Assembly: GCA_050263095.1 (NCBI GenBank)
Contig: JBLNEW010000068.1
Coordinates: 14,570 to 78,569 of the forward strand
Reading direction: 5' to 3'
Length of the DNA: 64,000 nucleotides
From: Deltaproteobacteria bacterium
GTDB lineage: Bacteria; Desulfobacterota; Deferrimicrobia; Deferrimicrobiales; Deferrimicrobiaceae
Of the stretch, positions 6,198 to 63,910 are shown piece by piece. A program made the position numbers and the translations under genes. Every line of letters begins with the position of its first letter. Positions within the stretch are counted from its first letter, which is position 1. The notes beneath the pieces are model-generated. The model made no database searches. It saw only the letters and a program-made list of their open reading frames with translations, and was not told the DNA's origin.

Positions 6198-6208
6198 GTG
6201 AAGCCCTC

Positions 6209-7753
<1,545 letters not shown>

Positions 7754-13740: not shown

Positions 13741-13833
13741 CCGGAAATTCAGTTTAAACAACTTTTATTTTATATATACCATAATACTTTTTTTGTTAAC
13801 ATTTTAACTTGCATTAAGACAATTATTGTTGTA
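13741..13833 (+). promoter_or_regulatory. AT-rich intergenic block, probable promoter region of the HTH-ARH gene
   Basis: About 90 nt of strongly AT-rich sequence (ttttattttatatataccataatactttttttgttaacattttaacttgcattaagac) inside otherwise high-GC DNA, immediately 5' of the gene. Confidence 0.3.
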
Positions 13834-13878
13834 TTGATTTTAAAGGAACGTGACCCTCGACGGGGCAAGGATCCACTC

Positions 13879-17421: not shown

Positions 17422-18201
17422 TTACTCCCTGAATCCCAGGCGCGTGGACAGCGCCTTGGCGCAACGGGCCACTTCCGGTCCGATCTTCTGCCCGATCTTC
17501 TCGTCGGGGAGCCGGTGGGCCGGGCCGGTGACGCTCAACGCCGCGATCACCTTCCGCGTGTAGTCGCGGACTGGCGAAGCGACGCAGCGCAATCCTTCCT
17601 CGAACTCCTCCAGGTCGGTGGCGTATCCGAGCTCGATTACCGTCGCGAGGTGTTTGAGAAGCTCCTCCGGGCTGGTGATCGTGTTCTTCGTGTACTTGTA
17701 AAGTTCCGCATGGAACCTCTTGCGGATCTCCTCTTCCGAGTCGAAAGCGACCAGCGCCTTCCCTGCCGCGGTCGCGTGGAGCGGCATGTGGAGCCCGACG
17801 CGGGAAATGACCCGCACGGTCGAGGTCGTTTCCACCGCGTCCAGGTAGACTACATCTGCGCCCCGCAGAATGGAGACGTAGCTGGTCTCGCCGGAGCTCT
17901 CGGCAAGCTCGCGCAGTATCGGCTGGGCCTGCTTCAGGAGGCCCCTCTGGTGAATGAAAGTCTGCCCCAGTTCCAGGCACTTGATCCCAAGGCGATAATT
18001 GTCGTTGGTCCTGTTCTGTTCTATGTAATTCCTTGACTGCAGCGTGGCCAGGATGCGGAATACGTTGTTTTTATGCAGTTTAAGTTTCTTGCTGAGCTCC
18101 GTGACGCCGAGTTCGTCCATCTCGCCGCGGAATTCCTCCAGCACATCGAGAGCATGTGCGACCGACTGTATGATGTAGTTGGACTTGTCCCGCCTGACCA
18201 T
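17422..18201 (-). CDS. IclR family transcriptional regulator
   Basis: I start at ATG 18201 (MVRRDKSNYIIQSVAHALDVLEEF; GGAGGA RBS 6 nt upstream). IclR HTH plus C-terminal effector domain. Confidence 0.8.
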   Translation of the reverse strand: MVRRDKSNYIIQSVAHALDVLEEFRGEMDELGVTELSKKLKLHKNNVFRILATLQSRNYIEQNRTNDNYRLGIKCLELGQTFIHQRGLLKQAQPILRELAESSGETSYVSILRGADVVYLDAVETTSTVRVISRVGLHMPLHATAAGKALVAFDSEEEIRKRFHAELYKYTKNTITSPEELLKHLATVIELGYATDLEEFEEGLRCVASPVRDYTRKVIAALSVTGPAHRLPDEKIGQKIGPEVARCAKALSTRLGFRE

Positions 18202-18413
18202 CTCGCGTCCTCCATGTAGGCTGTTGGAAAAGGGATTACAAAACAATGTTACATATATTCCATACGGGAATGGGTGTCAACAGAAAAATATAACGGCTTT
18301 ATCGCGATTGGGCTTCCGGTATACGATCCCGTAACTAGAGTCGAAATACCGAGTGTAAACCGTGTCTTTTTAAGGCATTATCGGTTGTAAAACAACCGGA
18401 AATAAAATGTGTT

Positions 18414-18971
18414 TCATTTGAATTTAGGCTTTTCCGGGGCGGTCATGCCCTTCATCCTTGAGATCTCGCTCTTCAGGGATTCCCTGTACGGATAGTTCGG
18501 AACGTTTTCCAGCAGCGCCTCCCAGGCTCGTATCCCCCCCTCCACGTCGCGTTTGTCGTGGATGAGGATTATGCCGAGGTTGTAGCGAGACTGCGCATGC
18601 CTGGGATCCATCGAAATGGCCTTTTTCAGTTCTTCAATTGCCCTGTCCGGGTCACCGGTCCTGCGGTAGCTGACTGCCATGTCCGTCCTCACGTTGACGT
18701 TACGGGGGTCGAGGGCAAGAGCCTTCCGGTAATGTTCGATTGCGAGCAGATCCTGCCGCGTATCGAAATAAAGGTTCCCGATGTTAATAAGCGCCTGCAG
18801 GTTGTTCGGGTCTTTCTTCAGTATTTCCTTGTAGTTTTCTATTTGCGAGAGGGCGTTAAGGTTTATCGTCTCCCCCTCTCCCGCGGGCTGCGGCGCCTCT
18901 TTTTTACGGCATCCCGCCGGAAACAGCATGACGAGCGCCAATGCAACCGCCAGCGCCGACTTGCGCATCAT
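18414..18971 (-). CDS. tetratricopeptide-repeat lipoprotein
   Basis: I start at ATG 18971 (GGAAGGAGG RBS). MMRKSALAVALALVMLFPAGC has signal-peptide plus lipobox features. TPR motifs follow (ALINIGNLYFDTRQDLLAIEHYRKALALDPRN...). Confidence 0.75.
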   Translation of the reverse strand: MMRKSALAVALALVMLFPAGCRKKEAPQPAGEGETINLNALSQIENYKEILKKDPNNLQALINIGNLYFDTRQDLLAIEHYRKALALDPRNVNVRTDMAVSYRRTGDPDRAIEELKKAISMDPRHAQSRYNLGIILIHDKRDVEGGIRAWEALLENVPNYPYRESLKSEISRMKGMTAPEKPKFK

Positions 18972-18993
18972 GCAATCCTCCTTCCCTCTGATA

Positions 18994-19488
18994 TCAAACG
19001 GGCAAAACCTCCAGCGGATCCCGGCACGCGTCCAGGAGCTCCCTGACTGTCCTTCCCTCCGGCGGCACCGGCGCGCCGGCGGCAACCTCGGACGCCGGCA
19101 AAAGGCAGAACCTGCGGAACGGAAGCCCCGGGTGCGGGATGACCAGGTGCGGCTCGCTCACCGTCTTGTCGCCCATGAGCAGAATGTCGACATCCAGCTC
19201 CCGCGGCCCCCACCTTGCCGCGGACTTTCTCCCGGAGGCCGCCTCCACCTCCTTGACGAATTCCAGGAGATCGTCGGGCGGAAGGCCGCATCTCCCCCGG
19301 ACCGCCATGTTCAGGAACCAGGGCTGGCCCGCTCTTCCCCACGGTTCGCTCGCGTAGACGCGGGATACCAGCTCCACATCCACGTTCCGGGAAAGAAGCA
19401 TAAGACCATCCCGCAGCCGCCTCACCCGCCGCCCCACGTTGCTGCCGAGCAGCAGGACTACGTCCCCGGGCGATGGTCCGCCTAGAAC
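18994..19488 (-). CDS. folK: 2-amino-4-hydroxy-6-hydroxymethyldihydropteridine pyrophosphokinase (HPPK)
   Basis: Conserved LLLGSNVG N-terminal motif, ERWGPRELDVDIL and C-terminal HPPK motifs. 5' end uncertain: no canonical start codon lies just upstream of VVLLLGSNVG, so the start I give (GTT codon at 19488) is approximate. Confidence 0.65.
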   Translation of the reverse strand, partial: VLGGPSPGDVVLLLGSNVGRRVRRLRDGLMLLSRNVDVELVSRVYASEPWGRAGQPWFLNMAVRGRCGLPPDDLLEFVKEVEAASGRKSAARWGPRELDVDILLMGDKTVSEPHLVIPHPGLPFRRFCLLPASEVAAGAPVPPEGRTVRELLDACRDPLEVLPV

Positions 19489-32431: not shown

Positions 32432-32970
32432 GGCGCGGCGATCTCCTCCGACACCACGTTGTCGTTGGTATATATGCATATGCCGGAGGCGATGCGCAGC
32501 GCCTCGCACGCGATCGTGAGCGCCGGAAGCTCCGTGTGCTGCAACATTCCCCTTGCCGCCGCCAGGGCGAACGGCCCCCCGGAGCCGACGCCGATCACTC
32601 CGTCGTCGGGCTCGACCACGTCCCCGCTTCCGGACAAAAGCATCAGGTCCCGTCCGTCGGTCACCACCATTACCGCGTCCAGCCGGCGCAGCACCCGGTC
32701 GGTCCTCCATTCCTTCGCGAGCTCCACCGCCGACCTCCGGAGGTTCCCGCGGAATTCGGAGAGCTTCCCCTCGAACTTCTCGAACAGCGTGATCGCATCC
32801 GCGGTCGCCCCCGCAAATCCCGCAAGCACGCGGTCCTCATGCAGGCGGCGGATCTTCCGGGCCGTGTGCTTGAGGATGGTGGCGCCCATGGTCACCTGCC
32901 CGTCCCCCGCCATCGCCACCCGGCCGCCGCGCGACACCGCCACTATCGTAGTCCCCCGAATCTCGGTCAA
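32428..32970 (-). CDS. hslV: ATP-dependent protease peptidase subunit HslV
   Basis: 180 aa, [12 protein letters not shown]... with the N-terminal Thr nucleophile after Met; GDGQVT and GSGG motifs. Confidence 0.9.
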
Positions 32971-33926
32971 GACTTCCTCCCCGGGCGCGACAAGGGGTGC
33001 GCCGACTCGTATGCCCGCACGAGATGGCTGACGTTGACCCTCGCGTACCTCTGCGTCGTGGAAAGCGACGAGTGCCCCAGCATCTCCTGAATAGCCCGCA
33101 GGTCCGCGCCGGATTCCAGCAGGTGCGTCGCGAAGCTGTGCCGGAGTCCGTGCGGCGACAGCTTCCGCCCCGTCCCTGCCCGCCTGAGGGCGTAATCCAG
33201 GATACGGGCGACGCTGCGAGCCGAAAGGCCGCCCCCCCTCAAGTTGCGGAACAGGACACCCGCATCCGAGGCCTTTTCCGAAGAAGCGGACGCTTCCCGC
33301 TCGGACAGGTATTCCCTTATCGCGCGTATCGCCTTCCCCCCGACCGGTACGATCCGCACCTTTCGCCCCTTCCCCGTCACGCGAACCGTGCCCTCCTTCA
33401 GGCGTATGTCTTCACGCCGCAGAGCCACCAGTTCCCCGACGCGCAGGCCCGACGAGTAAAGCAGCTCGAGGATCGCGGCATCGCGCGCGCTCTTCTCTCC
33501 TCCCCCCGGCGCCGATCGGAGCAGGTCCATCATCTCGTCAACCGGGAGAAAACCAGGGAGCTTCATCTCCCTTCGGGGGGCCGCGAGCGACGCAGCCGGA
33601 TTCCCCGGAAGCGCCCCCTGACCGACCAGGAACGCGAAGAATGACCGGACGGCCGAGATCTTCCTCGCCAGGGACGCCGGTTTCAGGGACGGAAACCTGG
33701 CGGAGAAGAACCTGCGCAGGTCATCGGTCGTCACCGTCTTCCACCCGCCGGTCGCCTTGCCGGGGCCCTTCCCCTTCCTCTCCTTCAGGAACGCTTCGAG
33801 ATCGGAAACCTCGCGCACGTATGCGCGCACGGTTTCCCTGGAAGCATTCCGCTCCGAGAGGAGGAACTGCGCGAATCGGCCGATGGCGTCGTTCGAATAC
33901 GTGGCATCTCCCTTCCAAACCTTCAA
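32967..33926 (-). CDS. tyrosine recombinase XerC/XerD family
   Basis: [34 protein letters not shown] box II with catalytic Tyr, and [10 protein letters not shown] box I. I re-called the start to TTG compl. 33924-33926, which gives an XerD-like N-terminal length. Track ATG 34034 would overlap trmFO by about 95 nt. Sits in the conserved xerC-hslV-hslU arrangement. Confidence 0.8.
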
Positions 33927-33939
33927 AAAAGGAAAAGAT

Positions 33940-35292
33940 TTATGTAACACACAAGGGGTTAAATTTAAAGAAACTTCTGCGGAATTCCGTGATCGCGGAA
34001 AGCGCCGCCGCGGCTTGCCTTGCCTTGCGCTCACGCTTCCTGCCGGGCGGGGGCTCCGGGAGCAGGCCGAAGTTGGCGTTCATGGGCTGGCAACGGCCCG
34101 GGCGCGGCGAAGTTATATAACGCAGGAGGGACCCGGTCATGGAGGCGTCGGGAAGCGGGAAGGGCGCTTTCCCCGCCGCCATCGATGCGATGTAACAGGC
34201 AGCCGCGAAACCGGAGGCTATCGACTCCACGTAGCCCTCCACCCCCGTGATCTGGCCCGCGAAGAAAAGGCCCGGACGCCTCCGGCACTCCAGCCACGGA
34301 TGTAGATGGCGCCGCGCGTCCAGGAAGCTGTTCCTGTGGACTGAACCGTACCTCAGAAACCTCGCGCGGGAGAGCCCCGGTATCATGGAAAATACGCGCT
34401 CCTGTTCGGGATAGGCGAGCTTCGTCTGGAATCCGACCAGGTTGTACATCGTCCCCGCCGCATTCTCCTTGCGGAGCTGCACGACGGCGTGCGGAATCCT
34501 TCCCGTCCTTGGGTCCGGAAGGCCGACCGGGCGCATCGGCCCGAAAAGGAGCGTTTCCGGCCCCCTGCGGGCGAGCGTTTCCAACGGCATGCATGACTCG
34601 AAATACCTCTCGTCCTCGAACTCACGGGCAGGGACCACGCGGGCCGACAGCAGCGCGGACAGGAACGCTTCGTACTGCTCCCTGTTCATCGGGAGGTTCA
34701 GATAATCCCCCTCCCAAGGCCGGCCGCCGTACCGGTCCGCCAGGAACGCGGCATCTCCGTCTATCGTGGAGGCGTCGACTATCGGCGAGATCGCGTCGTA
34801 GAAATAATATCCCTCGTCCCCCAGGAGCGTTCGGATCGACGAGGACAGCGCGTCCGAAGGAAGCGGACCGCACGCCACGAGGACAAGGCCCGATTCGGGA
34901 ATCGACCGGACCTCCCTCTCCTCCACCCGGACGTTCGGCCTGGAGCGGACGGCTCCGGTCACCAGCTTCCCGAAGAGTTCGCGGTCCACGGCAAGGGCCT
35001 TTCCCGCGGGGACGCGGGCGCGGTCCGCGAGAAAAAGCAGGTTCGATCCCAGCTCCCGCAGCTCCGCCTTCAGCAGGCCCTTTCCCGACTGCTCTTCCTC
35101 GGAGCCCAGGGAGTTGCTGCACACGAGCTCCGCGAACCATCCCGTCGTGTGCGCGGGCGAAGAGGAGCCCGGGCGCATCTCCAGCAGATCGACGGGAACG
35201 CCCGCGGCCGAGAGGACCAGCGCGGCCTCCGAGCCCGCGAGCCCGGCTCCTATTACGGTGATTCTTGCGTCAGGAGGCGGAACCGCCGGCAC
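33940..35292 (-). CDS. trmFO: methylenetetrahydrofolate--tRNA-(uracil-5)-methyltransferase
   Basis: 450 aa. FAD motif ITVIGAGLAGSEAA; Gid/TrmFO-wide similarity. Confidence 0.85.
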   Translation of the reverse strand: MPAVPPPDARITVIGAGLAGSEAALVLSAAGVPVDLLEMRPGSSSPAHTTGWFAELVCSNSLGSEEEQSGKGLLKAELRELGSNLLFLADRARVPAGKALAVDRELFGKLVTGAVRSRPNVRVEEREVRSIPESGLVLVACGPLPSDALSSSIRTLLGDEGYYFYDAISPIVDASTIDGDAAFLADRYGGRPWEGDYLNLPMNREQYEAFLSALLSARVVPAREFEDERYFESCMPLETLARRGPETLLFGPMRPVGLPDPRTGRIPHAVVQLRKENAAGTMYNLVGFQTKLAYPEQERVFSMIPGLSRARFLRYGSVHRNSFLDARRHLHPWLECRRRPGLFFAGQITGVEGYVESIASGFAAACYIASMAAGKAPFPLPDASMTGSLLRYITSPRPGRCQPMNANFGLLPEPPPGRKRERKARQAAAALSAITEFRRSFFKFNPLCVT

Positions 35293-53731: not shown

Positions 53732-53806
53732 GCCGACGTAGCTCAACGGTAGAGCAGCTGATTCGTAATCAGCAGGTTGCCAGTTCAATCCTGGCCGTCG
53801 GCTCCA
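53732..53806 (+). tRNA. tRNA-Thr (anticodon CGT)
   Basis: Manual cloverleaf. Acceptor GCCGACG/CGTCGGC 7 bp, U8, D-arm GCTC/GAGC, anticodon stem GCTGA/TCAGC with loop TTCGTAA (CGU), T-arm GCCAG-TTCAATC-CTGGC, discriminator T, encoded CCA. Confidence 0.85.
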
Positions 53807-53810
53807 CCAC

Positions 53811-54329
53811 TTACAGGAAAATCACATACTTGCAAGTTGCCGAATCGCGCAGGATCATTCGGGAACGGACGAAATGTAAGGGATTAAGTGCACATTTTAG
53901 ACACATCTTGACGTACTCTAGAGATTTCCCGTTCCCGATGAGCCAGGTTGCGTAGGTGTGCCGAAGGTCGTGAAAGCGAATTTGCCGGAGGCCCGCTTTC
54001 CGCAAGCACGCTGCGAACATATGCCGAACGTTCGCCCCATCCTGCGCCGTCACTTCCACCGATTCCTCCTCATCTTCGGGGAGCCGATATATCTTCGCAG
54101 GGAATACCCACTCGGGCATGGACCGCCCTGCCTTCAACGCTTCCGCAGCCACAGCTCGCCGATGCTCAGTAAGGATAGCCGCCAGCAGGTCGGACAGGTC
54201 CACACGCCGCGCTTTCCCTGACTTCGGCGTGCTGATATGCCCTTCCCAGTTTGCACGCCGCACTTCGATGTATTTCCCATTCCAGTCAATATCGCCCCAT
54301 TGTAAGGCGATCAGTTCTCCCTGCCGCAT
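53811..54329 (-). pseudogene. tyrosine integrase (phage/P4-like), C-terminal catalytic fragment, decayed at both ends
   Basis: Box I GMRQGELIALQWGDID and box II HDLRHTYATWLI are present. The reading frame then diverges into non-integrase sequence before the catalytic Tyr region. Upstream it is joined by a frameshift to ORF 54286..54633. It is 4 nt from the tRNA 3' end. Confidence 0.7.
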
Positions 54330-54689
54330 CCCTTGTTCCGTCAGCCAATCTATACGGGATTTCTACCCCGTCTATCCGATCTTTCAAGCCCAACGATTCC
54401 AAAAACTCAACCGGGATCCGCTTTATTTCAGCTAGTGCCGAGACTGTGACTGATCCACTCGACACAATGCCCGCAATGCGTTTTTGCTCATTTAACGCCG
54501 CGAAAACCGCTTCCGGCGGGCACCCGGCATGACAATGTAAAACGACATCAACCTTTTCACCTGGGTTGACGCTAAGGGAAGGATTGCTGTCCGCATGCGC
54601 GGGCAGCAAGCTGTGAAACCTTGGCCGTTCCATTTAACCCCCTCTAAAAGGTCGGCAATTTCTTGTAATCGTGGGTTGTTGATTTTCAT
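54286..54689 (-). pseudogene. remnant of phage/plasmid primase zinc-binding (CHC2-type) domain, frameshifted and fused to the integrase fragment
   Basis: Two overlapping frames together read ...KWNGQGFTACCP / AHADSNPSLSVNPGEKVDVVLHCHAGCPPEAVFAAL, the CHC2 primase zinc-finger pattern (CPFH-D--PSLSV---G---HCFGCG). Continues into integrase-like sequence with another frameshift. Confidence 0.45.
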
Positions 54690-54931
54690 CGGGTCTCTCT
54701 TCCTCCAGCATCAACTCCGCGGAATATAGCGACCACATCATCGACACATATCGGCTCTTCGCGGTACTGCGCCAACCAGCGATCCACATCTTCGGTCCGG
54801 AAAAGGATGCCGCTACCTGGAGGATGTATGTGCGGAACATATGGCAATAGATGTCGTCGTGCCCAACGTGCGAAACGCCCGCCGCAATACATTCCAGCCT
54901 GTGCCAATGTCAAATACACCGTTATAGACAT
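54686..54931 (-). CDS. AlpA/excisionase-family small HTH protein (possibly degenerate)
   Basis: ITVYLTLAQAGMYCGGRFARWARRHLLPYV...ILFRTEDVDRWLAQ matches the phage AlpA/Xis DNA-binding pattern (l-eaA-yLgvs--tlyRwv--G-fP ... f--edvdaWl). About 80 aa. Confidence 0.4.
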   Translation of the reverse strand: MSITVYLTLAQAGMYCGGRFARWARRHLLPYVPHIHPPGSGILFRTEDVDRWLAQYREEPICVDDVVAIFRGVDAGGRETR

Positions 54932-55041
54932 GCCCATAAGCTCCTTTATAGGGGGCTATCTCGAAAACTATTACTGTTGTAAGGCTGAATGAAAAACTTG
55001 GGTCCAGGCTATATGGACGGAAAAAGAGGACGATATAGCGG

Positions 55042-55689: not shown

Positions 55690-56014
55690 TATTACCCGAA
55701 TCGGTGTCTACGAAACCAGGGGAACTCCAGTAGATCTAGCGCACGTGCGGGAAAATTTATTTGAGTACATTCAATTTCCTCGATATGATTCGCACATTAA
55801 TGAGAGATCGTTTGCCATTCCTATTCGGCTACACCTTCGATATTTTCTCAACTGCCGATTGAGCGCCCCCGCATTCCTCAGCATCCGGGGGATCAAGGAG
55901 CCGGGCTTGAGCAGGATGTTCAGGCTACGTTATCCAGGGCATGGCTGCAGGACATGCACCCTAATCCTATCCTTGAATATGTGCTTTATGATTTTTATAG
56001 GCGAGAAATTTACA

Positions 56015-56032
56015 GTCTAAACCGCGTTAGGC
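56015..56032 (+). repeat. minimal attC/attI-like site GTCTAAAC-CGC-GTTAGGC upstream of the first cassette
   Basis: Inverse-core-like GTCTAA(A)C and GTTRRRY core GTTAGGC are separated by 3 nt and lie 36 nt 5' of the first cassette ORF. May mark the insertion point or a collapsed attC. Confidence 0.25.
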
Positions 56033-56068
56033 GAACGATGGAATTATATATAAAAAGGAGAACAAAAT

Positions 56069-56419
56069 ATGGTTAGGGAGATATCAAAATATAAGCCATC
56101 TTTTTCAACGTGCCCATTATGTAATAGCACTATGTCGAGTAAAGAAATACGAGGGCATGTTGTTCGGTGCCAAAAGACGAAACATATTGGTATTGGCGTT
56201 AAGCAATTATCAAAAAATACCGTATTGATTACAAAAAATATACTGTGTAAAGAATGTGGATTAGTCAAGGCCGCCACTTATGATATGAACAATAAAAGAC
56301 CGCCTAAAATTTGTAATGCATGTAAGAAAAATCCTCCTATTAAGTCGAACGATAAATTCGACCCATTAGACCGTTCTATCAGTGGTGGGGCATTTGAAAT
56401 GAATCGAAGGAGACATTAA
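56069..56419 (+). CDS. cassette ORF 1: small Cys-rich (double zinc-ribbon-like) protein, unknown function
   Basis: 116 aa. CPLC...HVVRC and CKEC...CNAC pairs. AAAAGGAG RBS. Followed 8 nt later by attC-like R1. Confidence 0.55.
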   Translation: MVREISKYKPSFSTCPLCNSTMSSKEIRGHVVRCQKTKHIGIGVKQLSKNTVLITKNILCKECGLVKAATYDMNNKRPPKICNACKKNPPIKSNDKFDPLDRSISGGAFEMNRRRH

Positions 56420-56427
56420 TTTACGTC

Positions 56428-56493
56428 GCCTAACCACCGTTTGCAGATGACGGCTTGCAGCTTTCTCGCTGAGCGCAAAGAACTGAAGCGGAG
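56428..56493 (+). repeat. attC-like site R1 (left half intact: GCCTAAC-CA-CCGTTTGCAG ... CTGAAGCGGAG; right core lost)
   Basis: RYYYAAC inverse core GCCTAAC. L''-like CCGTTTGCAG faces L'-like CTGAAGCGG with one extra G. Shares the central consensus GACGGCTyGC...CTTTCTCGCTGAGyGC with R2 and R3. Confidence 0.5.
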
Positions 56494-56526
56494 ATGGGCA
56501 GTAATAATAACAAGGGGAGATCACAA

Positions 56527-56862
56527 ATGGGAGCTGTGGAAAACATAAAAGAAATTGCCGACCTAATAAAGAAGATCGGCGATGCTGATTTGTATCGAAA
56601 GATAGTAGAGTTGGAACATGAAGTATTTGAACTTTCATGCCAAAACCTATTAAGTCTGAGTAAGATCGAAGAGTTAAAAGAAATTTTGCGTGTCAAACAG
56701 AACATCAAATACGATGGCCAAGTATACTATCTTGAGGGAGATTCCGTTCCCTATTGCCCAAAATGCTGGGAAGTTACTAGAGCACTGGTTCACCTAACAG
56801 AATCCGCGAGCCCAAGTTTTGGTCACTGTCCGAATTGTGAAAATTCATTCAGAGTTAGGTAG
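56527..56862 (+). CDS. cassette ORF 2: small coiled-coil protein with C-terminal zinc ribbon, unknown function
   Basis: 111 aa from ATG 56527 (AAGGGGAGA RBS 6 nt upstream). CPKC...CPNC at the C-terminus. Track start 56494 lies inside R1. Confidence 0.55.
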   Translation: MGAVENIKEIADLIKKIGDADLYRKIVELEHEVFELSCQNLLSLSKIEELKEILRVKQNIKYDGQVYYLEGDSVPYCPKCWEVTRALVHLTESASPSFGHCPNCENSFRVR

Positions 56863-56902
56863 ATCTTGGGTTGCTATATTCCAAATTTCTAGGAGATAGC
56901 AC

Positions 56903-57343
56903 ATGAATTTCAATCATATATGTCTCTATACCGATGGTGGTAGCAAAGGCAATCCAGGACCCGGCTCGATTGCCTTAATAATCTGTAACTCAAACAACGA
57001 AATATTACAGGAATATTCGGAATGCATTGGCCACTGCACCAATAACCAAGCAGAGTATAAAGCATTAATAAAAGGCCTCGACTTATCAGCAAGGTATACC
57101 CGGCGGAAGGTAACCTGTTACTCCGACAGCGAACTATTGATAAAACAAATGAATGGACAGTACAGATTAAAAAATGCTGCACTCAGAAAGTTGTTTCACC
57201 AAGTCCAGGACCTAGTTCGGATGTATGACGAGGTAGTATACCAACATGTACTCAGAGGAAATCAGCGAATAACGCGGGCTGACCAGCTTGTAAAGCAGGC
57301 CCATGCGGGGAGACATATTGATAAGGTGCATGTCATACCGTGA
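56903..57343 (+). CDS. cassette ORF 3: RNase HI-like (type 1 ribonuclease H fold) protein
   Basis: 146 aa. YTDGGSKGNPGPGSIA (Asp1), NNQAEYKALIKGL (Glu), CYSDSELLI (Asp2), C-terminal RADQL (Asp3). Aligns by eye to the E. coli RnhA catalytic residues; lacks the basic protrusion. Confidence 0.75.
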   Translation: MNFNHICLYTDGGSKGNPGPGSIALIICNSNNEILQEYSECIGHCTNNQAEYKALIKGLDLSARYTRRKVTCYSDSELLIKQMNGQYRLKNAALRKLFHQVQDLVRMYDEVVYQHVLRGNQRITRADQLVKQAHAGRHIDKVHVIP

Positions 57344-57347
57344 CGCC

Positions 57348-57421
57348 AGCTAACCACTGCTTGGCACTGACGGCTCGCGTCTTTCTCGCTGAGTGCCCGC
57401 AGCTGAAGCGGAGCGTTAGAC
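57348..57421 (+). repeat. attC-like site R2 (AGCTAAC ... CTGAAGCGGAGC-GTTAGAC), 74 bp
   Basis: Starts 5 nt after the ORF 3 stop and ends 24 nt before the ORF 4 start. Ends in GTTAGAC (GTTRRRY). The left end is its imperfect reverse complement. Internal L''/L' pairing with an extra G. Confidence 0.55.
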
Positions 57422-57445
57422 CGACTGAAAAATGGGAGGAGGGAA

Positions 57446-57718
57446 TTGAAACACTCACTGAGAAACTTATTCGTTTTCCTGTCCATTATGGGTTTAATCG
57501 TTTCCGCATGTGCTCATCAGCCAACTCCAGCCGCATATGATCCCCCAGGATTCTTCTCTGGTCTATGGCATGGATTTATTATTTTATTCAGTCTCATTGG
57601 AAGCATTTTTTCCGACATTAGAATCTACGCATTTCCAAATTCAGGTGGGTGGTACGACTTTGGTTTCTGCATAGGGGTAACTGCATTTTTTGGTGGAGGA
57701 GCAAGTGCTGCAACATGA
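57446..57718 (+). CDS. cassette ORF 4: small lipoprotein / membrane protein
   Basis: 90 aa from TTG (GGAGGAGGG RBS just upstream). MKHSLRNLFVFLSIMGLIVSAC has a lipobox-like signal peptide, then two hydrophobic helices and a Gly-rich tail. Confidence 0.5.
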   Translation: MKHSLRNLFVFLSIMGLIVSACAHQPTPAAYDPPGFFSGLWHGFIILFSLIGSIFSDIRIYAFPNSGGWYDFGFCIGVTAFFGGGASAAT

Positions 57719-57753
57719 GTGGAAAAACAAACAAGGGACATTTTGTTTACGCG

Positions 57754-57826
57754 GTCTAACTACCGCTTGCAAATGGCGGCTCGCGTCTTTTCGTTTAGCG
57801 CCCGCTGCTGAAGCGGAGCGTTAGAC
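57754..57826 (+). repeat. attC-like site R3 (GTCTAAC-TA-CCGCTTGCA ... TGAAGCGG-AGC-GTTAGAC), 73 bp, best-preserved copy
   Basis: R'' GTCTAAC and R' GTTAGAC are perfect reverse complements. L'' CCGCTTGCA pairs with L' TGAAGCGG leaving one bulged G. Starts 36 nt after the ORF 4 stop and ends 15 nt before the ORF 5 ATG, with GGAGGAG between. Confidence 0.6.
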
Positions 57827-57841
57827 CGCGGAGGAGAAATA

Positions 57842-58480
57842 ATGAAGAAGATATCAGTGAAGGGATTGGCGGATTATATGACGGCAAGTGCTGCGGCACA
57901 AAGGAGGTTAATACGGCAATACAAATACCCTTCTGAGGATGAAGCACGAGCGAAAATTTTGTATTACCGCGAAGCAAGGGACCGAATTGAGGCGTTCCAT
58001 AGAAGAGGACGGGATGCGGATTGGCTCAGGTCCCAAGCATCAAACCTCCGAGGTCTTGCTTTGCTCTCCTCTGTGCGAACACGCACACGCCTTCGACACA
58101 ATGCACGGGCACTTATAGATTATGGGCGGAACTTCAGCACCAAGACATTTTCGGTTCTCCCCGATATATCATTATCCGTTCAATATGGCGATCTTCGGAT
58201 AACAGCATTCCCTGATCTATATGTGAATGAAGATGGTGAATCAAAAATAATTAAACTAGATTTTTCCAAGAAACCACTGCCATCGGACGTACCAAAAATA
58301 ATATGTCAGGTGTTCCTAGAAGCCTCGATCCAAGCAGGTATGAGCATTCAAGCAAAAAATATTCTTCTATTCGATGTTACGAGAGGCAAAGAATATAAAC
58401 AAGCAAGAATAGGAGCAAGAATGAGTAGGAATATAGAAGCGACATGCCAAACGATTTCTGCTGTCTGGGACACAATATAA
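57842..58480 (+). CDS. cassette ORF 5: hypothetical protein (possible PD-(D/E)xK-like motif FPDLYV...ESK, weak)
   Basis: 212 aa, no confident domain. GGAGGAG RBS. Confidence 0.5.
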   Translation: MKKISVKGLADYMTASAAAQRRLIRQYKYPSEDEARAKILYYREARDRIEAFHRRGRDADWLRSQASNLRGLALLSSVRTRTRLRHNARALIDYGRNFSTKTFSVLPDISLSVQYGDLRITAFPDLYVNEDGESKIIKLDFSKKPLPSDVPKIICQVFLEASIQAGMSIQAKNILLFDVTRGKEYKQARIGARMSRNIEATCQTISAVWDTI

Positions 58481-58489
58481 ATTAAGACG

Positions 58490-58618
58490 GTCTAACTACC
58501 GCTTGAAGCTGACAGCTCCTTCTGGTCACAGTTCTTGCGGATTGGCGGCGCACCGAAAAGCCTTGGCCGTCGGGGTAAGGCTCGCCCCTCATCTCGCGGC
58601 TTAAGCCGAACGTAAGGC
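58490..58618 (+). repeat. attC-like site R4 (GTCTAAC-TA-CCGCTTGAAGC ... GCGGCTTAAGCCG-AAC-GTAAGGC), 129 bp, long/degenerate
   Basis: Left 20 nt nearly identical to R3. Right end GCGGCTTAA(G)C..GT(a)AGGC resembles known attC 3' ends, with a degenerate core. L''/L' again differ by one extra G. Confidence 0.45.
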
Positions 58619-58641
58619 ACAATGGGGAGGTACATACATTC

Positions 58642-59346
58642 ATGGCCATCCTGGCATTAAGTTGTACAAAATGTGGCAAAGAAAAGCCGATATTTATGGG
58701 GGATGAATTCGCCGGCATTAGGGATGAAATTGCCGGCAATGTGATCCATTGCGATGCATGCCACGAAATAATAATAAGATGCAGAGTTATAAGAGGTTAT
58801 ATCTACGTGTTATCTAATCCGTCGATGCCAGGACTATATAAGATTGGTATGACAAGAAGGCCACTGGGAGACAGAGTTAATGAATTGGGAGCGTCAACTG
58901 GGGTTCCAACACCTTTTGTTGTTGAGGCATACTTCGAAACCAACGACCCAGAAGAGCATGAGAGAAAGGTTCATATCGCCCTTGGGGAATACCGGATGCC
59001 AAGCAAAGAATTTTTCAGACTGCGTCTTGAGGAAGTGCTGAAAGCCGTTAAGGACATATGCGGACTGGAAAGCGTATCCAATAATTATTATTTTCAGGTT
59101 AATCAAGATGATAGCCAAGCGGAATACCCCGACGGAGCCCCACGAGAGTACCGAGGACAGTCTGAGCATCTCTTTCAAAAATGTCCACCGGTTGGGCATG
59201 AAAGAATCTTCGGAATCAGTTTGAACAGCAACATGAGGGCTCAATGTCGAAGCTGTGGCGCATTGTTATCACCACGAGCATCGGTTTGTGGATTCTGTAA
59301 TAAACCTCTGGAGGACAAAGACGTAATTATTGTTGAAAAAAAGTGA
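58642..59346 (+). CDS. cassette ORF 6: T5orf172/GIY-YIG-like domain protein flanked by N- and C-terminal zinc ribbons
   Basis: 234 aa. GYIYVLSNPSMPGLYKIGMTRRPLGDRVNEL...PFVVEAYFETNDPEEHERKVHIAL...EFF matches the T5orf172 (GIY-YIG-related) pattern. CTKCGK...CDAC and CRSCG...CGFC ribbons. Confidence 0.6.
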   Translation: MAILALSCTKCGKEKPIFMGDEFAGIRDEIAGNVIHCDACHEIIIRCRVIRGYIYVLSNPSMPGLYKIGMTRRPLGDRVNELGASTGVPTPFVVEAYFETNDPEEHERKVHIALGEYRMPSKEFFRLRLEEVLKAVKDICGLESVSNNYYFQVNQDDSQAEYPDGAPREYRGQSEHLFQKCPPVGHERIFGISLNSNMRAQCRSCGALLSPRASVCGFCNKPLEDKDVIIVEKK

Positions 59347-59521
59347 CGATGTATTAGTGAAAATTGGCCTATGTGCCTAACAAGCACAGGCGTATACGAA
59401 GACATGAAAAAAAATATGATTCCTCCGCGGATGGGATATTCTCGACAAAAAGGAGGTCGACTTCGAGGTGAACAGATGTTGACATTTCCAATGCCTACGA
59501 TCCTTCAGGTGGCCTGAGACG

Positions 59522-62500
59522 ATGAACGACGAATACGCGCAATCGAATGGCATCCAAGGGTTTTCACAAAAAGTCCTCCGATATTTCCTGAACTTCCTTC
59601 AGTCGGATTTCAAGAGGCAGCATGCCCCGCGTCGTCGTATACATTTGCATTCGGATGCCGGCTTCCGAATGGGAATGCCACTCAGGAAATACGACTCACT
59701 TTACAAGGCCTCGTGGAAACTCGTCGACACCACTCCGGACGGAGGATTGTCTCTCCGGATCGCTCCCGATCAGTTCCGGGCTCCAATCAATCCGACGCTG
59801 CGTGACCTCATCCGGCAGTACATCAATGCCATCGAAGACTGCACGATTTCAGGCATAGCAAAGACCACGGTCGAGTTTGCCGCGGGGAGGATCGTATCTG
59901 CCGCGAAGGACCCGGAGAAATTCGTCGAATCCGTCCAGGTCCATTTCGCCGAAGAAATCGGTAAGCACATCGTCCAACCCCTTCTGTCTTTACTGGAGGC
60001 ACCATTCAGGGATGCAGCCTATTCGGCCATCGAGTCCATATACGAGATCGAGGCCGACCTCACGGATGTCATCGCGTCAAGAACCCTTGAGAATCTCCCG
60101 CTGGCTATCAATACGTTGATTGTCTCGGGCAACACAGCGCCAATGCGAGACCTCTTCGCGGATTCCTTCTCCCCTCAGGACGTCCGGTTCCGCGTGCAAT
60201 CGTTCTTCGTCGATGTCGCTACCTCCGACGCCTTCCAGGAACTGCGCGACCTCCAAAACTCACTGCGTTCCGCGGAAAACCAGTCCATATACCTATACTT
60301 CTGCGACTTGAAGTTCGGACACAATATTTTCCCGCTGTTCTACATTCCATCCACGCTTACATACGATGAAGGGGACCGGGCATTCATTCTCGACTTCGAG
60401 CCGCACCTTTTCGTTAACAAGCAGGCGGTCGACTGGATTCTCCAAGAACATAAGGGGGAAACAGCTTCCCTCCCCATTTCCCCAGTGGCCGACCGCATCG
60501 TCTATCTGGACGGCAAGCGGTCTTTCCTCGAGGAAATGGAGACCGTTTTCTCCCGCCTCATCCTCGCGTTCGAGTTGGCTGCCGGTATCGACCTACAGAG
60601 GAAAACACTCCAACAGGTATCCTCGCCGATGCTGAAGATCACAACCGCCGCATACCTCGCAGTCTTCGACAAGTCGGACGAATCGCTGATCAACGACTAT
60701 GAGGAGCTTCTCGCCGCTTTCAACGAGGAACAGAAGAGCGCCGGCGACCTCTTCGAAAACATCATCAAGGGTTTCTTATTCGATAACCCCGTCTCCGTTT
60801 CCTCGGCTGTCGAGTCTGCATGGGACGAGATGACCATCCCCGACCGTCTGGTAGCCGTCTCGCCGATCCCCGTGAATGAGGAGCAACGGAAGATCCTAAT
60901 GGCCTTGAAAAATCCTAACTGCAACTATGTATCCGTCCAGGGACCTCCGGGAACTGGAAAATCACACACAATCACGGCAATTGCGTTCGAAGGGATCCTA
61001 AACGGTCAGAGCGTCCTCATCCTCTCCGACAAGACCGAAGCTCTCGACGTCGTGCAAGACAAACTGGAATCAGCCCTTTCCAAGGTGCGGCACGGAGACG
61101 AAGATTTCCCCAACGCTATCCTGCGGCTGGGAAGATCCGGAGGCACCTACAACCGCCTCGTGTCCGCGTCAGCCCAAGCGAAGATCAAATGCCACCACAA
61201 AGCGGCAATCAGTCACGAGGAGGACCTCAGAAAACAATACGAAGAGACGTCGGCCACGCTGCGCGCTGACATCGGGAAAACAGTCGAATCCCTATCCTCG
61301 ATCAGGATTGATGTTCTGAACGAACTGCACGCGCTTGAAGCCGAGATCGAAACCGTCCGACCGGAGATCATCTCCAGGCTCCAGAGGCCTTCGGAGCCCG
61401 TCCGCATTCCCGTACTCGCTCCCTTGGCTGGCGCGGCCCACTTTCCCTCGGCGTCCGCGGTTCTGACCCGGGCTTTCCGGGAAGGCGGTAGCAACACACT
61501 CCAATACCTCGTCCCCCATCTTTCCGCTTGGGAGCGCGCAGGGCAACTGGCCGGGGATGTTGGACCGCGCGACCCACTGTCGGTTTTCTCCACGCTCGAA
61601 TCCAGCCACCACGAGACACTCCTCCGGTACATCGCCCGGTACGAATCGCTACGCATGCCGATTATCGGCTGGCTATTCCGGCGGGCAGCGGTTCGCGAAA
61701 CCGACCTCAAGGCCGGCTCCGATCTACCCTGTCCCGACCCGATTGACCTTCACAAGCGATTGCCGCACATGAAGCGTGCGGCTCGCGTCCTGGGTCTTCT
61801 TTGCGACACGTTCACCCGCGAGGGACTTCAGGAACATCTTGTAGGCTTCGCGTATCGCCTTCTCAGGGAAGGCGAGGCTACGCATGCTGATGTTCCCGCG
61901 CTGGCGTCTCTGGCGAGGGAGTTCTCATCGGTTATCGCTGGTTCTCCCTCGAATGCCGATACTCTGCTTCGTTCAGAGGATTTCCGAACCCCGGAGGAAC
62001 TTTTCGCATTCATCGCAAAAGCCGTCAGGTACTCCGCTCTCTGGTCAGACATCGTCGGACATATGGGGAGAGTTCCGAAGACCGACTACGTCGGCACCAA
62101 GATCCGGCTCGAGCAACTGAACACCACTCGGATGACCCGCGAGATCGACAGCCGCTTCCTCGAATTCGTCGATCAAAAGAAGGCGACGGTTAAAGAGATC
62201 GGCGGCGTCATCAAGCACAAGCAGAAATTCCCAGAGGACGAGTTCCACCACCTTTCGGACGCGTTTCCCATCATCATCGCCGGCATCCGGGAGTACGCCG
62301 AATATGTCCCTCTCAAGCAGAGGTTGTTCGACCTGGTCGTAATCGACGAAGCCAGCCAGGTGTCTGTCGCCCAAGCACTCCCGGCTGTCCTCCGTGCAAA
62401 GAAGATCGTCGTCTTCGGCGACGCAAAACAGTTCTCGAACGTGAAGTCCTCGCAAGCGAGTATCGCTATCAACGCAGGCTACCTGACCGACATCGAGGCG

Positions 62501-63910
62501 TATTTCCGAGACAACGTCGCCGATGCGACGACAAAGATCCAGCGGTTGAAGCATTTCGATGTAAAGAAATCGATCCTCGAATTCTTCGACCTCATCGCCA
62601 ACTACCAGACGATGCTCCGCAAACACTTCCGCGGCTATCAGGAATTGATCAGCTTCTCGTCGAAAACCTTCTATGACGGACAGCTGCAGGCGATTAAAAT
62701 CCGCAGTAAACCCATTCAGGAGGTGCTCCGCTTCGAGGTTCTCGAGTCTGTCCCGGAAAGCCCTGTCAAGAACGTGAACCGGGCCGAGGCCGAATTTATC
62801 CTCAAGGAACTTCGCCGGATGATCGACGATGGCGATGAGATGTCCATCGGCGTCATTACGCCGTTCCGGGAACAGGTCAAGCTCCTCAACGAGATCCTTT
62901 TCCGCGACGCGTACGGCGAAAAGTTCGAGTCCGAGCTTCGCCTGAAGATCATGACCTTCGATACCTGCCAGGGTGAGGAGCGCGACCTGATCATCTTCAG
63001 CATGGTCGCAACTGCCAAGCGGGATCTGCTCAACTATGTATTCCCCGTCACGCTCGATGCCGAAACCCAGGATTCTGACAGGCTCAAGGTCCAGCGCCTG
63101 AACGTCGGATTCAGCCGCGGCAAGGAAGCGTTTCTGTTCGTCCTCTCCAAGCCGGCCGACCAGTTTCGTGGTTCGATCGGAATCGTTCTGAACCACTACA
63201 AGAATATCCTGGATGACAGGTCCCGGGCAGACAAGCTGGGTGTTGACCCGACATCCCCGATGGAAATCAAGGTTCTCGACTGGATCTACAAGACGCCTTT
63301 CTGCCAGATCAACGAAGAACGGATCGAGGTCGTCCCGCAATTCCCGGTGGGGGAGTACCTCAGGCAATTGGACCCGTTCTATGCGCATCCGGCCTATTGT
63401 TGCGATTTCCTCGTCCGCTACTATGACGGGCAAACCACTGCCAATGTCATCATCGAATACGACGGGTTTGCCGAGCACTTCGTAGAGAGGAATAAAATCC
63501 ACAACGGGAACTGGGAACTCTACTATCGCCCCGAGGATATCGAACGCCAGATGGTCATCGAGTCCTACGGCTACAAATTCCTGCGCCTGAACCGGTTCAA
63601 CACCGGGAATGACCCGGTGGATTATATGTCGAAGCGCCTATACGAACTCGTGGAGGTAGCCTCAAAGGCCGACGAGGACAGCAGCCCTGTTGCTCATATC
63701 AAGGACGACGCGGAAGGAATCGAGAACGGTAGCAAGCGGTGTTGTCCTAAGTGCGGAGAGATCCGCAAAGCCCAAGAGTTCTGGGACCCCAAGCTCAAGA
63801 GCGGAAGTGGAGGATACGGTCGGAACTGTCTGGAGTGCAAACAGGCGGCGCTCAAGGCCCGTTCGGGAGGGAAAACAAGGAGGTGGCGTTCCCGCTATAG
63901 ATACCGTTGA
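59522..63910 (+). CDS. large SF1 helicase (AAA_11/AAA_12, Upf1-like) with long N-terminal domain and C-terminal Vsr/DUF559-like endonuclease domain plus terminal zinc ribbon; Hhe-like defence architecture
   Basis: 1462 aa. Walker A VQGPPGTGKSHTI, motif II VVIDEASQV, motif III VVFGDAKQF, motifs V/VI TFDTCQGEERDLIIFSMV...NVGFSRGK. C-terminal IIEYDGFAEHF...D..R......GYKFLRLNRF is the DUF559/Vsr-like PD-(D/E)xK pattern. CPKCGE...CLEC at the extreme C-terminus. Confidence 0.75.
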   Translation: MNDEYAQSNGIQGFSQKVLRYFLNFLQSDFKRQHAPRRRIHLHSDAGFRMGMPLRKYDSLYKASWKLVDTTPDGGLSLRIAPDQFRAPINPTLRDLIRQYINAIEDCTISGIAKTTVEFAAGRIVSAAKDPEKFVESVQVHFAEEIGKHIVQPLLSLLEAPFRDAAYSAIESIYEIEADLTDVIASRTLENLPLAINTLIVSGNTAPMRDLFADSFSPQDVRFRVQSFFVDVATSDAFQELRDLQNSLRSAENQSIYLYFCDLKFGHNIFPLFYIPSTLTYDEGDRAFILDFEPHLFVNKQAVDWILQEHKGETASLPISPVADRIVYLDGKRSFLEEMETVFSRLILAFELAAGIDLQRKTLQQVSSPMLKITTAAYLAVFDKSDESLINDYEELLAAFNEEQKSAGDLFENIIKGFLFDNPVSVSSAVESAWDEMTIPDRLVAVSPIPVNEEQRKILMALKNPNCNYVSVQGPPGTGKSHTITAIAFEGILNGQSVLILSDKTEALDVVQDKLESALSKVRHGDEDFPNAILRLGRSGGTYNRLVSASAQAKIKCHHKAAISHEEDLRKQYEETSATLRADIGKTVESLSSIRIDVLNELHALEAEIETVRPEIISRLQRPSEPVRIPVLAPLAGAAHFPSASAVLTRAFREGGSNTLQYLVPHLSAWERAGQLAGDVGPRDPLSVFSTLESSHHETLLRYIARYESLRMPIIGWLFRRAAVRETDLKAGSDLPCPDPIDLHKRLPHMKRAARVLGLLCDTFTREGLQEHLVGFAYRLLREGEATHADVPALASLAREFSSVIAGSPSNADTLLRSEDFRTPEELFAFIAKAVRYSALWSDIVGHMGRVPKTDYVGTKIRLEQLNTTRMTREIDSRFLEFVDQKKATVKEIGGVIKHKQKFPEDEFHHLSDAFPIIIAGIREYAEYVPLKQRLFDLVVIDEASQVSVAQALPAVLRAKKIVVFGDAKQFSNVKSSQASIAINAGYLTDIEAYFRDNVADATTKIQRLKHFDVKKSILEFFDLIANYQTMLRKHFRGYQELISFSSKTFYDGQLQAIKIRSKPIQEVLRFEVLESVPESPVKNVNRAEAEFILKELRRMIDDGDEMSIGVITPFREQVKLLNEILFRDAYGEKFESELRLKIMTFDTCQGEERDLIIFSMVATAKRDLLNYVFPVTLDAETQDSDRLKVQRLNVGFSRGKEAFLFVLSKPADQFRGSIGIVLNHYKNILDDRSRADKLGVDPTSPMEIKVLDWIYKTPFCQINEERIEVVPQFPVGEYLRQLDPFYAHPAYCCDFLVRYYDGQTTANVIIEYDGFAEHFVERNKIHNGNWELYYRPEDIERQMVIESYGYKFLRLNRFNTGNDPVDYMSKRLYELVEVASKADEDSSPVAHIKDDAEGIENGSKRCCPKCGEIRKAQEFWDPKLKSGSGGYGRNCLECKQAALKARSGGKTRRWRSRYRYR

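Follow-up and report, generated by a model that had tools for sequence, protein, structure and literature searches.

The closest described counterparts of the locus reported here are clusters of attC sites lacking an integron integrase (CALINs), 83% of which hold fewer than six attC sites (PMC4889954). Chromosomal attC collections have been published for the Deltaproteobacteria and the Acidobacteria (PMC8352920), and integron cassettes encoding phage defense were recently reported (bioRxiv 10.1101/2024.07.02.601719). The stretch studied here, called the window, comprises 64,000 nucleotides of a single metagenome contig of 72,155 nt. On its plus strand, at positions 56015 to 59381, lies a genuine integron cassette array of this integrase-less kind, now part of a genomic island and most likely the remnant of an integron that has lost intI. 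The array is a new case of an already known kind, and the understanding of integrons is unchanged by it.

The array consists of five cassettes arranged head to tail, all on the plus strand, with cassettes 1 to 4 each closing with an attC site; all of these sites belong to a single environmental attC family that is widespread. The sites were identified as attC from the motifs of their cores, a covarying stem that carries bulges on its left arm, the layout of the array, the association of the family with integron integrases (IntI), and apparent G|TT crossover footprints. The four sites fall within 2.2 kb, a CALIN being defined by two or more attC sites grouped within 4 kb and by the lack of a neighboring intI. 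The search for IntI covered the window and the 3.7 kb of contig past its end, leaving out the 4.4 kb before the window start, and since it found no IntI, the array is classed as a CALIN. A sequence-only reading of the same DNA had proposed a CALIN-like array in a tRNA-Thr island, which was borne out; the recombinases present are a generic fragment and a XerC. The view that cassette arrays are rare in such a lineage proved overstated, because chromosomal attC collections of this kind exist and have yielded a Deltaproteobacteria-specific attC model (PMC8352920). Nor is the array typical of a sedentary chromosomal integron, which has more than 19 attC sites or is fixed in its species: there are only four sites, they lie in an acquired island, and the locus is missing from a syntenic relative with a 91% identical RNase G.

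The attC sites of the window

The following sites were located, with scores from a covariance model built on an alignment of 26 family sequences, three of which are R1 to R3 themselves.

56428 to 56499, plus strand: attC R1, 72 nt; 48.8 bits, E about 1e-11; right core mutated to GATGGGC.
57348 to 57421, plus strand: attC R2, 74 nt; 62.0 bits; canonical GTTAGAC right core.
57754 to 57826, plus strand: attC R3, 73 nt; 73.9 bits; the best-preserved site.
58490 to 58618, plus strand: attC R4, a long variant of 129 nt; 33.9 bits, E of 5e-8, scored in a scan of the source contig over 58490 to 58621 (132 nt); right core GTAAGGC.
59375 to 59381, plus strand: possible fifth attC stump, GCCTAAC only, read off the sequence and of low confidence.

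All four repeats lie where the sequence-only reading had placed them, except that R1 runs to 56499 instead of 56493. Its right core, which had been taken as lost, is present but mutated (GATGGGC, 56493 to 56499), with a spacer 2 nt shorter. The repeats start 8, 4, 35, and 9 nt past plus-strand stop codons, in agreement with the earlier description, and the lengths listed above are inside the attC range of approximately 50 to 150 nt with a variable center. Two of the four sites, R2 (AGCTAAC/GTTAGAC) and R3 (GTCTAAC/GTTAGAC), have fully canonical cores; in R1 and R4, R'' is intact (GCCTAAC and GTCTAAC, respectively) and R' is mutated (GATGGGC and GTAAGGC). The stump at 59375 to 59381 is one base off the complement of the cassette 5 start, GTAAGGC, and the covariance model gives no site there.

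In the covariance scan of the window, the only match above 11.8 bits other than R1 to R4 was the opposite strand of R3 (22.3 bits). The right-arm 19-mer CTGAAGCGGAGCGTTAGAC and a left-arm 18-mer were found only at the array in the 64 kb, with 0.01 to 0.02 expected, and the window holds no copy of the repeat outside the array of the sort that a dispersed repetitive extragenic palindrome (REP) or miniature inverted-repeat transposable element (MITE) would leave. A permissive Rfam scan (Rfam 15) of 50 to 64 kb returned only tRNA and no family matching the repeats. The bottom strand of R3 folds to an R/L hairpin of -26.6 kcal/mol (z = -4.5 versus shuffles). The unpaired left-arm G pointed out previously is kept in all four sites, but the family has two left-arm bulges rather than exactly one; R2 and R3 each have three broken inner-stem pairs. 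R2 is 88 to 90% identical to sites in loci L018 and L029; the long center of R4 has a counterpart in L112 at 75% identity, and the left arm of R4 is common to L161. The GC content of the sites is 0.56 to 0.61.

The attC family and its structure

A degenerate two-part pattern derived from R1 to R3 matched 34 loci when one genome was taken per species, approximately 24 of them clear family members. These members came from metagenome-assembled genomes (MAGs) labeled Vicinamibacterales/Acidobacteriota, Deltaproteobacteria, Bacteroidota, Gemmatimonadota, Nitrospinota, Verrucomicrobiae, Schekmanbacteria, and Berkelbacteria. An exact 20-mer of R2 matched at least 120 metagenome contigs of the Joint Genome Institute (JGI), and the covariance model found 284 sites, in same-strand arrays, in 100 of the matched metagenome loci; overall, more than 300 sites came to light in approximately 100 public contigs. 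Across about 130 other loci, the family copies form same-strand arrays with sites spaced 0.4 to 1.5 kb apart, examples being those of L008 (at least 8 sites), L023 (7 sites), and L080/L046 (at least 12 sites).

The family consensus is gYCTAAC-YA-CCGCTT[G]CAGCYG[A]CGGC...variable...GCCGCRGCTGAAGCGG-N3-5-GTTRRRY. The structure tested was a 7-bp R''/R' helix followed by a 17-bp inner helix with two bulged bases on the left arm. Among the 26 aligned sites, 91.5% of cells were paired, with compensatory changes at 8 of 24 pairs; among 126 distinct sites, in an alignment that was fitted to the structure and hence leans towards it, the figures were 91.7% and 16 of 24 pairs. The 17-bp stem was 93.8% paired, with compensatory change at 12 pairs. 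None of 500 shuffles reached the observed values, and partners slid by one to three columns paired at only 25 to 48%. Bulge 1 is a G in every one of the 126 sites, and bulge 2 is an A in 97, a G in 20, a T in 8, and a C in 1. The AAC of R'' and the GTT of R' vary little or not at all; in none of these 126 sites does the GTT triplet vary, yet R1 has GAT and R4 has GTA in its place.

Adjacent integrases and the crossover footprint

Integrases were sought in the loci by tblastn with an IntI1 query, and matches were confirmed with NCBIfam TIGR02249 at a cutoff of 265 bits. Full-length IntI homologs with 49 to 54% identity adjoin the arrays in L030 (449.1 bits), L034 (443.7 bits), L016 (372.3 bits), and L080 (457.7 bits), and partial IntI sequences are present in L022, L131, L073, L046, L074, and L088. 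In L034 and L016, intI and the array are divergently oriented, and in L030, L080, L073, and L046 they run in the same direction.

Crossover at G|TT places the last six bases of a right core in the next cassette, so that the left core of a site should complement the start junction of its own cassette. In 65 nonredundant neighboring site pairs, scored over four variable positions, the left core matched the upstream junction perfectly in 45 and its own right core in only 7. Mean matches were 3.46 for the upstream junction, 2.46 for the own right core, and 2.41 for random pairing (p = 5e-8). As judged from the sequences compared, this dependence is what crossover at G|TT leaves behind. In the window the match is 7 of 7 for cassettes 1 (GTTAGGC/GCCTAAC), 3, and 4; it fails for cassette 2, where the upstream junction is the mutated core of R1.

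The head of the array

56015 to 56032, plus strand: attI-like simple site, GTCTAAA-CCGC-G|TTAGGC, at which cassette 1 begins; it could also be an attC site whose interior has collapsed.

The minimal element GTCTAAACCGCGTTAGGC, previously noted 36 nt ahead of the first ATG, was confirmed at these positions. Written as GTCTAAACCGC-G|TTAGGC, it is identical at 15 of 18 positions to GTCTAATTCGC-GTTRRRY, the attI simple site of the integrons in L080, L131, and L081, and about 0.006 chance matches to this motif are expected in all of the DNA analyzed. Its GTTAGGC is the exact complement of the R1 left core, GCCTAAC. In L080/L046 and L131, a conserved region of approximately 230 nt follows the intI stop codon and ends in GTCTAATTCGC-G|TTRRRY, the site lying about 200 nt past intI; the L081 locus starts inside this region and has the same stretch and site. 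The resemblance among the three attI regions ends precisely with GTT, and a different first cassette follows in each. These likenesses suggest that the element at 56015 to 56032 may be an attI stump, and hence that intI was lost; an attI-like simple site of the type found in integrase-bearing relatives most likely points to a complete integron that lost its integrase gene.

The conserved attI regions span 2560 to 2790 in L080, 1511 to 1740 in L131, and 1 to 220 in L081, and belong to an integron class in which intI is co-oriented with the cassettes. By eye, the first cassette of L080 and of L073 resembles a PIN toxin-antitoxin pair.

A complete integron has an adjacent intI with the IntI-specific additional domain, and none accompanies the array. 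Two recombinases in the window were considered as candidates and rejected. The fragment at 53811 to 54329 is not a degraded IntI (TIGR02249, 18.8 bits versus the cutoff of 265), and XerC (32967 to 34034), which lies 22 kb from the array and is the only other recombinase in the window, was likewise rejected on the integron integrase model. The 3.7 kb of contig past the window end contains no recombinase. A blastn comparison of the sequence preceding the array with the first 34 loci found nothing.

Origin and present state of the array

Following known integron biology, an integron integrase would have bound the folded bottom strand of each attC site, and recombination at G|TT with attI would have added the cassettes one by one. 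The complete integron would later have lost intI, leaving the 18-nt simple site alone, and the remnant would now reside within an integrative island of about 11 kb and low GC at tRNA-Thr, with which the array may have arrived. The array is partly decayed, R1 (GAT) and R4 (GTA) being without the invariant GTT crossover triplet, and the GAT of R1 is likely an inactivating change. The AAC/GTT triplet is required for recombination, and thus only R2 and R3 look competent; it would follow that only cassette 3 is still excisable, and only by an IntI acting in trans.

Several observations count against this reconstruction. The conserved region of about 230 nt upstream of attI is not recognizable in the window, so that the likeness is limited to 18 nt, which could possibly be an attC site with a deleted center. 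No intI pseudogene remnant was found when three cognate IntI proteins were compared with the island by tblastn at E values up to 10; the sole match was the generic integrase fragment, 25 to 27% identical to the related IntI. The loss of intI is therefore likely rather than proven, and, the source being a single metagenome contig, an IntI may be encoded elsewhere in the genome. The scoring model is family specific, with 3 of its 26 training sequences taken from the window. The bottom-strand hairpin expected of all four repeats held for R3 only, the isolated strands of R1, R2, and R4 folding no better than shuffles on energy; since isolated-strand folding supports R3 alone, fold energy by itself is a poor test for attC here. 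Finally, four homologs of the cassette 4 protein (P0005, P0008, P0013, and P0007) are not flanked by family attC sites, and this gene family is thus not confined to integrons.

The alternative that survives best is that the array is an active satellite, its cassettes still shuffled in trans by an IntI encoded elsewhere in the genome. We consider this possible but unlikely. Half of CALINs occur in IntI-encoding replicons (PMC4889954), our analysis covers one contig and not the rest of the genome, and the canonical cores of R2 and R3 and the strong fold of R3 count in its favor; the absence from R1 and R4 of a triplet invariant in 126 family sites, the broken inner-stem pairs in R2 and R3, and the lack of an IntI in the contig examined count against it. 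Less probable still is serial insertion of the cassettes at a secondary, non-attI GTT ("attG") site by an IntI from elsewhere, in which case there was never a local platform. At such a random GTT target the left-hand GTCTAA box would not be expected, nor would a head that matches, at 15 of 18 positions and with about 0.006 chance matches expected, the attI of integrase-bearing integrons using the same attC subfamily. Secondary-site insertion is a route to CALINs documented in PMC4889954 and bioRxiv 10.1101/2022.09.11.507474, and it would account for the lack of both an intI remnant near the array and the long conserved attI region of related integrons; we nevertheless regard it as improbable. 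The idea that the repeats are a dispersed REP/MITE element, transcription terminators, or a structured RNA unrelated to integrons draws on their being GC-rich intergenic hairpins that would fold equally well as RNA, and it is effectively refuted by the absence of copies beyond the array in 64 kb, of an Rfam family, and of plus-strand T-tract terminators, by the occurrence of the family only in same-strand arrays that often adjoin IntI, and by the way in which the left core follows the upstream junction, which only G|TT recombination explains.

Cassettes and their products

Loss of intI from a complete integron thus remains the favored origin of the array, whose cassettes carry the following open reading frames (ORFs), each with its own ribosome-binding site and with a GC content of 0.36 to 0.44.

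56069 to 56419, plus strand: cassette 1 ORF, 116 aa, Cys-rich and zinc-ribbon-like; cassette unit 56027 to 56493; GC 0.36.
56527 to 57343, plus strand: cassette 2, two ORFs, 111 aa of unknown function (56527 to 56862) and a 146-aa RNase H-like protein (56903 to 57343).
57446 to 57718, plus strand: cassette 3 ORF, a 90-aa small hydrophobic protein; cassette unit 57416 to 57820, 405 nt; phrog_30702, 2.9e-17.
57842 to 58480, plus strand: cassette 4 ORF, 212 aa, conserved, of unknown function; cassette unit 57821 to 58612.
58642 to 59346, plus strand: cassette 5 ORF, 234 aa, a T5orf172/GIY-YIG-like core flanked by zinc ribbons; Pfam T5orf172, 6.3e-18.

With a ribosome-binding site at every ORF, expression would hinge on read-through from upstream. 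Complete integrons have a Pc promoter ahead of their cassettes; in the 4 kb scanned, there were 6 sigma-70-like matches versus 7.6 expected from shuffles, one of them upstream of the array (55761 to 55789, plus strand), and there were no T-tract terminators on the plus strand. A tblastn search of all of the window cassette proteins against 154 attC-bearing loci found no homologs.

The cassette 1 protein gave only weak, subthreshold DpnI/Zn-ribbon matches. The 146-aa protein of cassette 2 matches Pfam RVT_3 (5.4e-18) and RNase_H (1.7e-13) and the PHROG RNase H family (2.2e-17); the covariance model gives no attC site between the two ORFs of this cassette. Cassette 3 is bounded by two intact sites, R2 and R3, its start GTTAGAC complementing the R3 left core GTCTAAC at 7 of 7 positions, and its product is a small membrane protein.

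The cassette 4 protein has 70 homologs, nearly all 211 to 230 aa in length, none of which has a Pfam domain. In L161, a 63% identical homolog lies behind two family attC sites and has the same G|TTAGACCGC start. The window and L161 share the last 14 nt of the upstream attC site (GAGCGTTAGACCGC), the gene, and the R4-like left arm of its own attC site (CGGTCTAAC-NN-NCGCTTGAAGCTGAC); the boundaries of the cassette are identical in the two arrays. Ahead of this gene the arrays carry unrelated cassettes, and the attC sites there have different bodies. The comparison shows what appears to be movement of the 212-aa gene and its long attC site as a unit between arrays. In loci L156 to L163, the neighbors of this gene family include a type IIG restriction-modification enzyme with an SNF2 helicase, Mrr_cat, MazE/PIN, and helix-turn-helix (HTH)/PemK proteins, and the homologs without attC sites are in contexts resembling defense islands. 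These gene neighbors suggest a role in defense or counter-defense for the 212-aa family.

Against PADLOC, the cassette 5 protein matched PDC-S57 (4.1e-27) and PD-Lambda-1 (1.1e-15), and cassette 5 is accordingly named here as a candidate single-gene defense cassette. This match and those of the neighboring helicase agree with the reported phage-defense cassettes of integrons (bioRxiv 10.1101/2024.07.02.601719).

The tRNA-Thr island and its host

The array lies inside a foreign island of approximately 11 kb and low GC, inserted at the tRNA-Thr gene of a Desulfobacterota-like bacterium.

53732 to 53806, plus strand: tRNA-Thr (CGT), found by ARAGORN; Rfam tRNA, 70.7 bits; left island boundary.
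53811 to 54329, minus strand: generic tyrosine recombinase truncated at both ends, an island integrase remnant; Pfam Phage_integrase, 1.3e-15.
59522 to 63910, plus strand: 1462-aa superfamily 1 (SF1) helicase (AAA_11/AAA_12), directly downstream of the array; PADLOC PDC-S37, 2.5e-41, and Mokosh MkoA/MkoC.

Approximately 11 kb further downstream, immediately beyond the window, 48 nt of the 3' half of tRNA-Thr recur as a partial copy (L001, 15205 to 15255; end near window coordinate 64776), the T-stem of which shows compensatory differences. The GC content between the tRNA copies is 0.51, versus 0.64 for the host. Besides the integrase fragment and the helicase, the island encodes a primase-like fragment, an unknown 215-aa ORF, and an excisionase-like HTH protein. 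An 83-aa ORF (54686 to 54937) has by eye the look of an AlpA/excisionase-type DNA-binding protein and has no library match. The 1462-aa helicase is possibly a defense gene of the island, and no attC site follows it.

The RNase G encoded just upstream is 91% identical to proteins of a "Deltaproteobacteria bacterium" MAG and 82% identical to that of Candidatus Deferrimicrobiaceae. In the relative with the 91% identical protein, synteny is kept up to rng and tRNA-Thr, and the island and any attC site are missing. In this island-free relative (L164), the 3' end of tRNA-Thr is repeated in short form (CAATCCCGACCGCCGGCTCCA) at about 11850, approximately 190 nt past the tRNA, and this repeat may be a scar left when an element integrated there previously. 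Two more low-GC patches lie in the host portion of the window, at 13001 to 14000 (0.55) and 18001 to 19000 (0.51), in a background of about 0.64. A 1.5-kb stretch (6208 to 7696) shares 74.7% DNA identity with L022 (3798 to 5292), where it is beside the split intI of a Vicinamibacterales MAG; the shared stretch is probably a conserved housekeeping gene.

Distribution across phyla

The attC family, with its conserved CCGCTTG...CTGAAGCGG L box, occurs on contigs assigned to at least eight phyla, such as L011, L013, L019, L022, and L023, which are 100 kb to 1 Mb in length, and L007, L008, L010, L027, and L029. The same attC type, in copies 88 to 96% identical, is on contigs assigned to the Desulfobacterota, Bacteroidota, Gemmatimonadota, Schekmanbacteria, and the candidate phyla radiation (CPR), and contigs 100 kb to 1 Mb long extend the wider family to the Acidobacteriota, Nitrospinota, and Verrucomicrobiota. 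The assignments to the Acidobacteriota, Nitrospinota, and Verrucomicrobiae rest on long contigs; assignments of short contigs may be binning errors.

One tentative and rather doubtful extension is that an attI-bearing remnant without intI rides the tRNA-Thr island, that one attC type and integrase class serves a cross-phylum cassette pool in groundwater and sediment, and that islands ferry the arrays. If the phylum assignments hold, this would conflict with the working assumption that attC types are taxon specific. If it were true, the T5orf172 protein, the adjacent PDC-S37/Mokosh-like helicase, and the 212-aa family would together make up a small defense-gene shuttle.

Comparison with known systems

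The points most worth keeping are the attI-like head, the island context, the cassette unit shared with L161, and the breadth and conservation of the attC family. The locus would be a worked example of how a CALIN originates, with the attI simple site kept and intI lost within a mobile island. It also puts on record, along with its attI, an environmental attC family that is very abundant and strongly conserved, and it offers candidate defense cassettes, and natural attC variants with and without GTT for recombination assays.

The attC sites of the family resemble those of mobile integrons, such as attC-aadA7, and the Vibrio repeats (VCRs) in having RYYYAAC...GTTRRRY inverse cores, R''-L'' bulges on the bottom strand, a variable center, and lengths in the range of 57 to 141 nt. 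On the bottom strand of attC-aadA7, bulge 1 lies 8 nt from the R box and bulge 2 lies 6 nt further, as in the window family. The family sites differ in that the bottom-strand bulge beside the L box is a C instead of the usual G, and in that most of the R-L interval is paired, with just a 2/3-nt spacer left unpaired; the sequence is also far more strongly conserved in this family than among mobile-integron attC sites.

Also close are the environmental integrons with a co-oriented ("inverted") intI in L080/L046 and L131, which use the same attC subfamily (CAGCTGACGGCTCGC...GCGCCCGCAGCTGAAGCGGAGCGTTRRRY) and an attI simple site of the same type (GTCTAAW-YCGC-GTTRRRY) and likewise carry small ORF cassettes on the attC top strand. 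In those loci an IntI (457.7 bits in L080) is encoded some 200 nt ahead of attI and the arrays hold a dozen or more sites, whereas the window is without both intI and the conserved attI region of approximately 230 nt. With the CALINs of Cury et al. (2016, PMC4889954), the array shares its small size (four sites), its cassettes of unknown function, and the absence of resistance genes. Unlike them, it keeps an attI-like simple site at its head and lies demonstrably within an integrative island that has tRNA flanks and that a close relative lacks.

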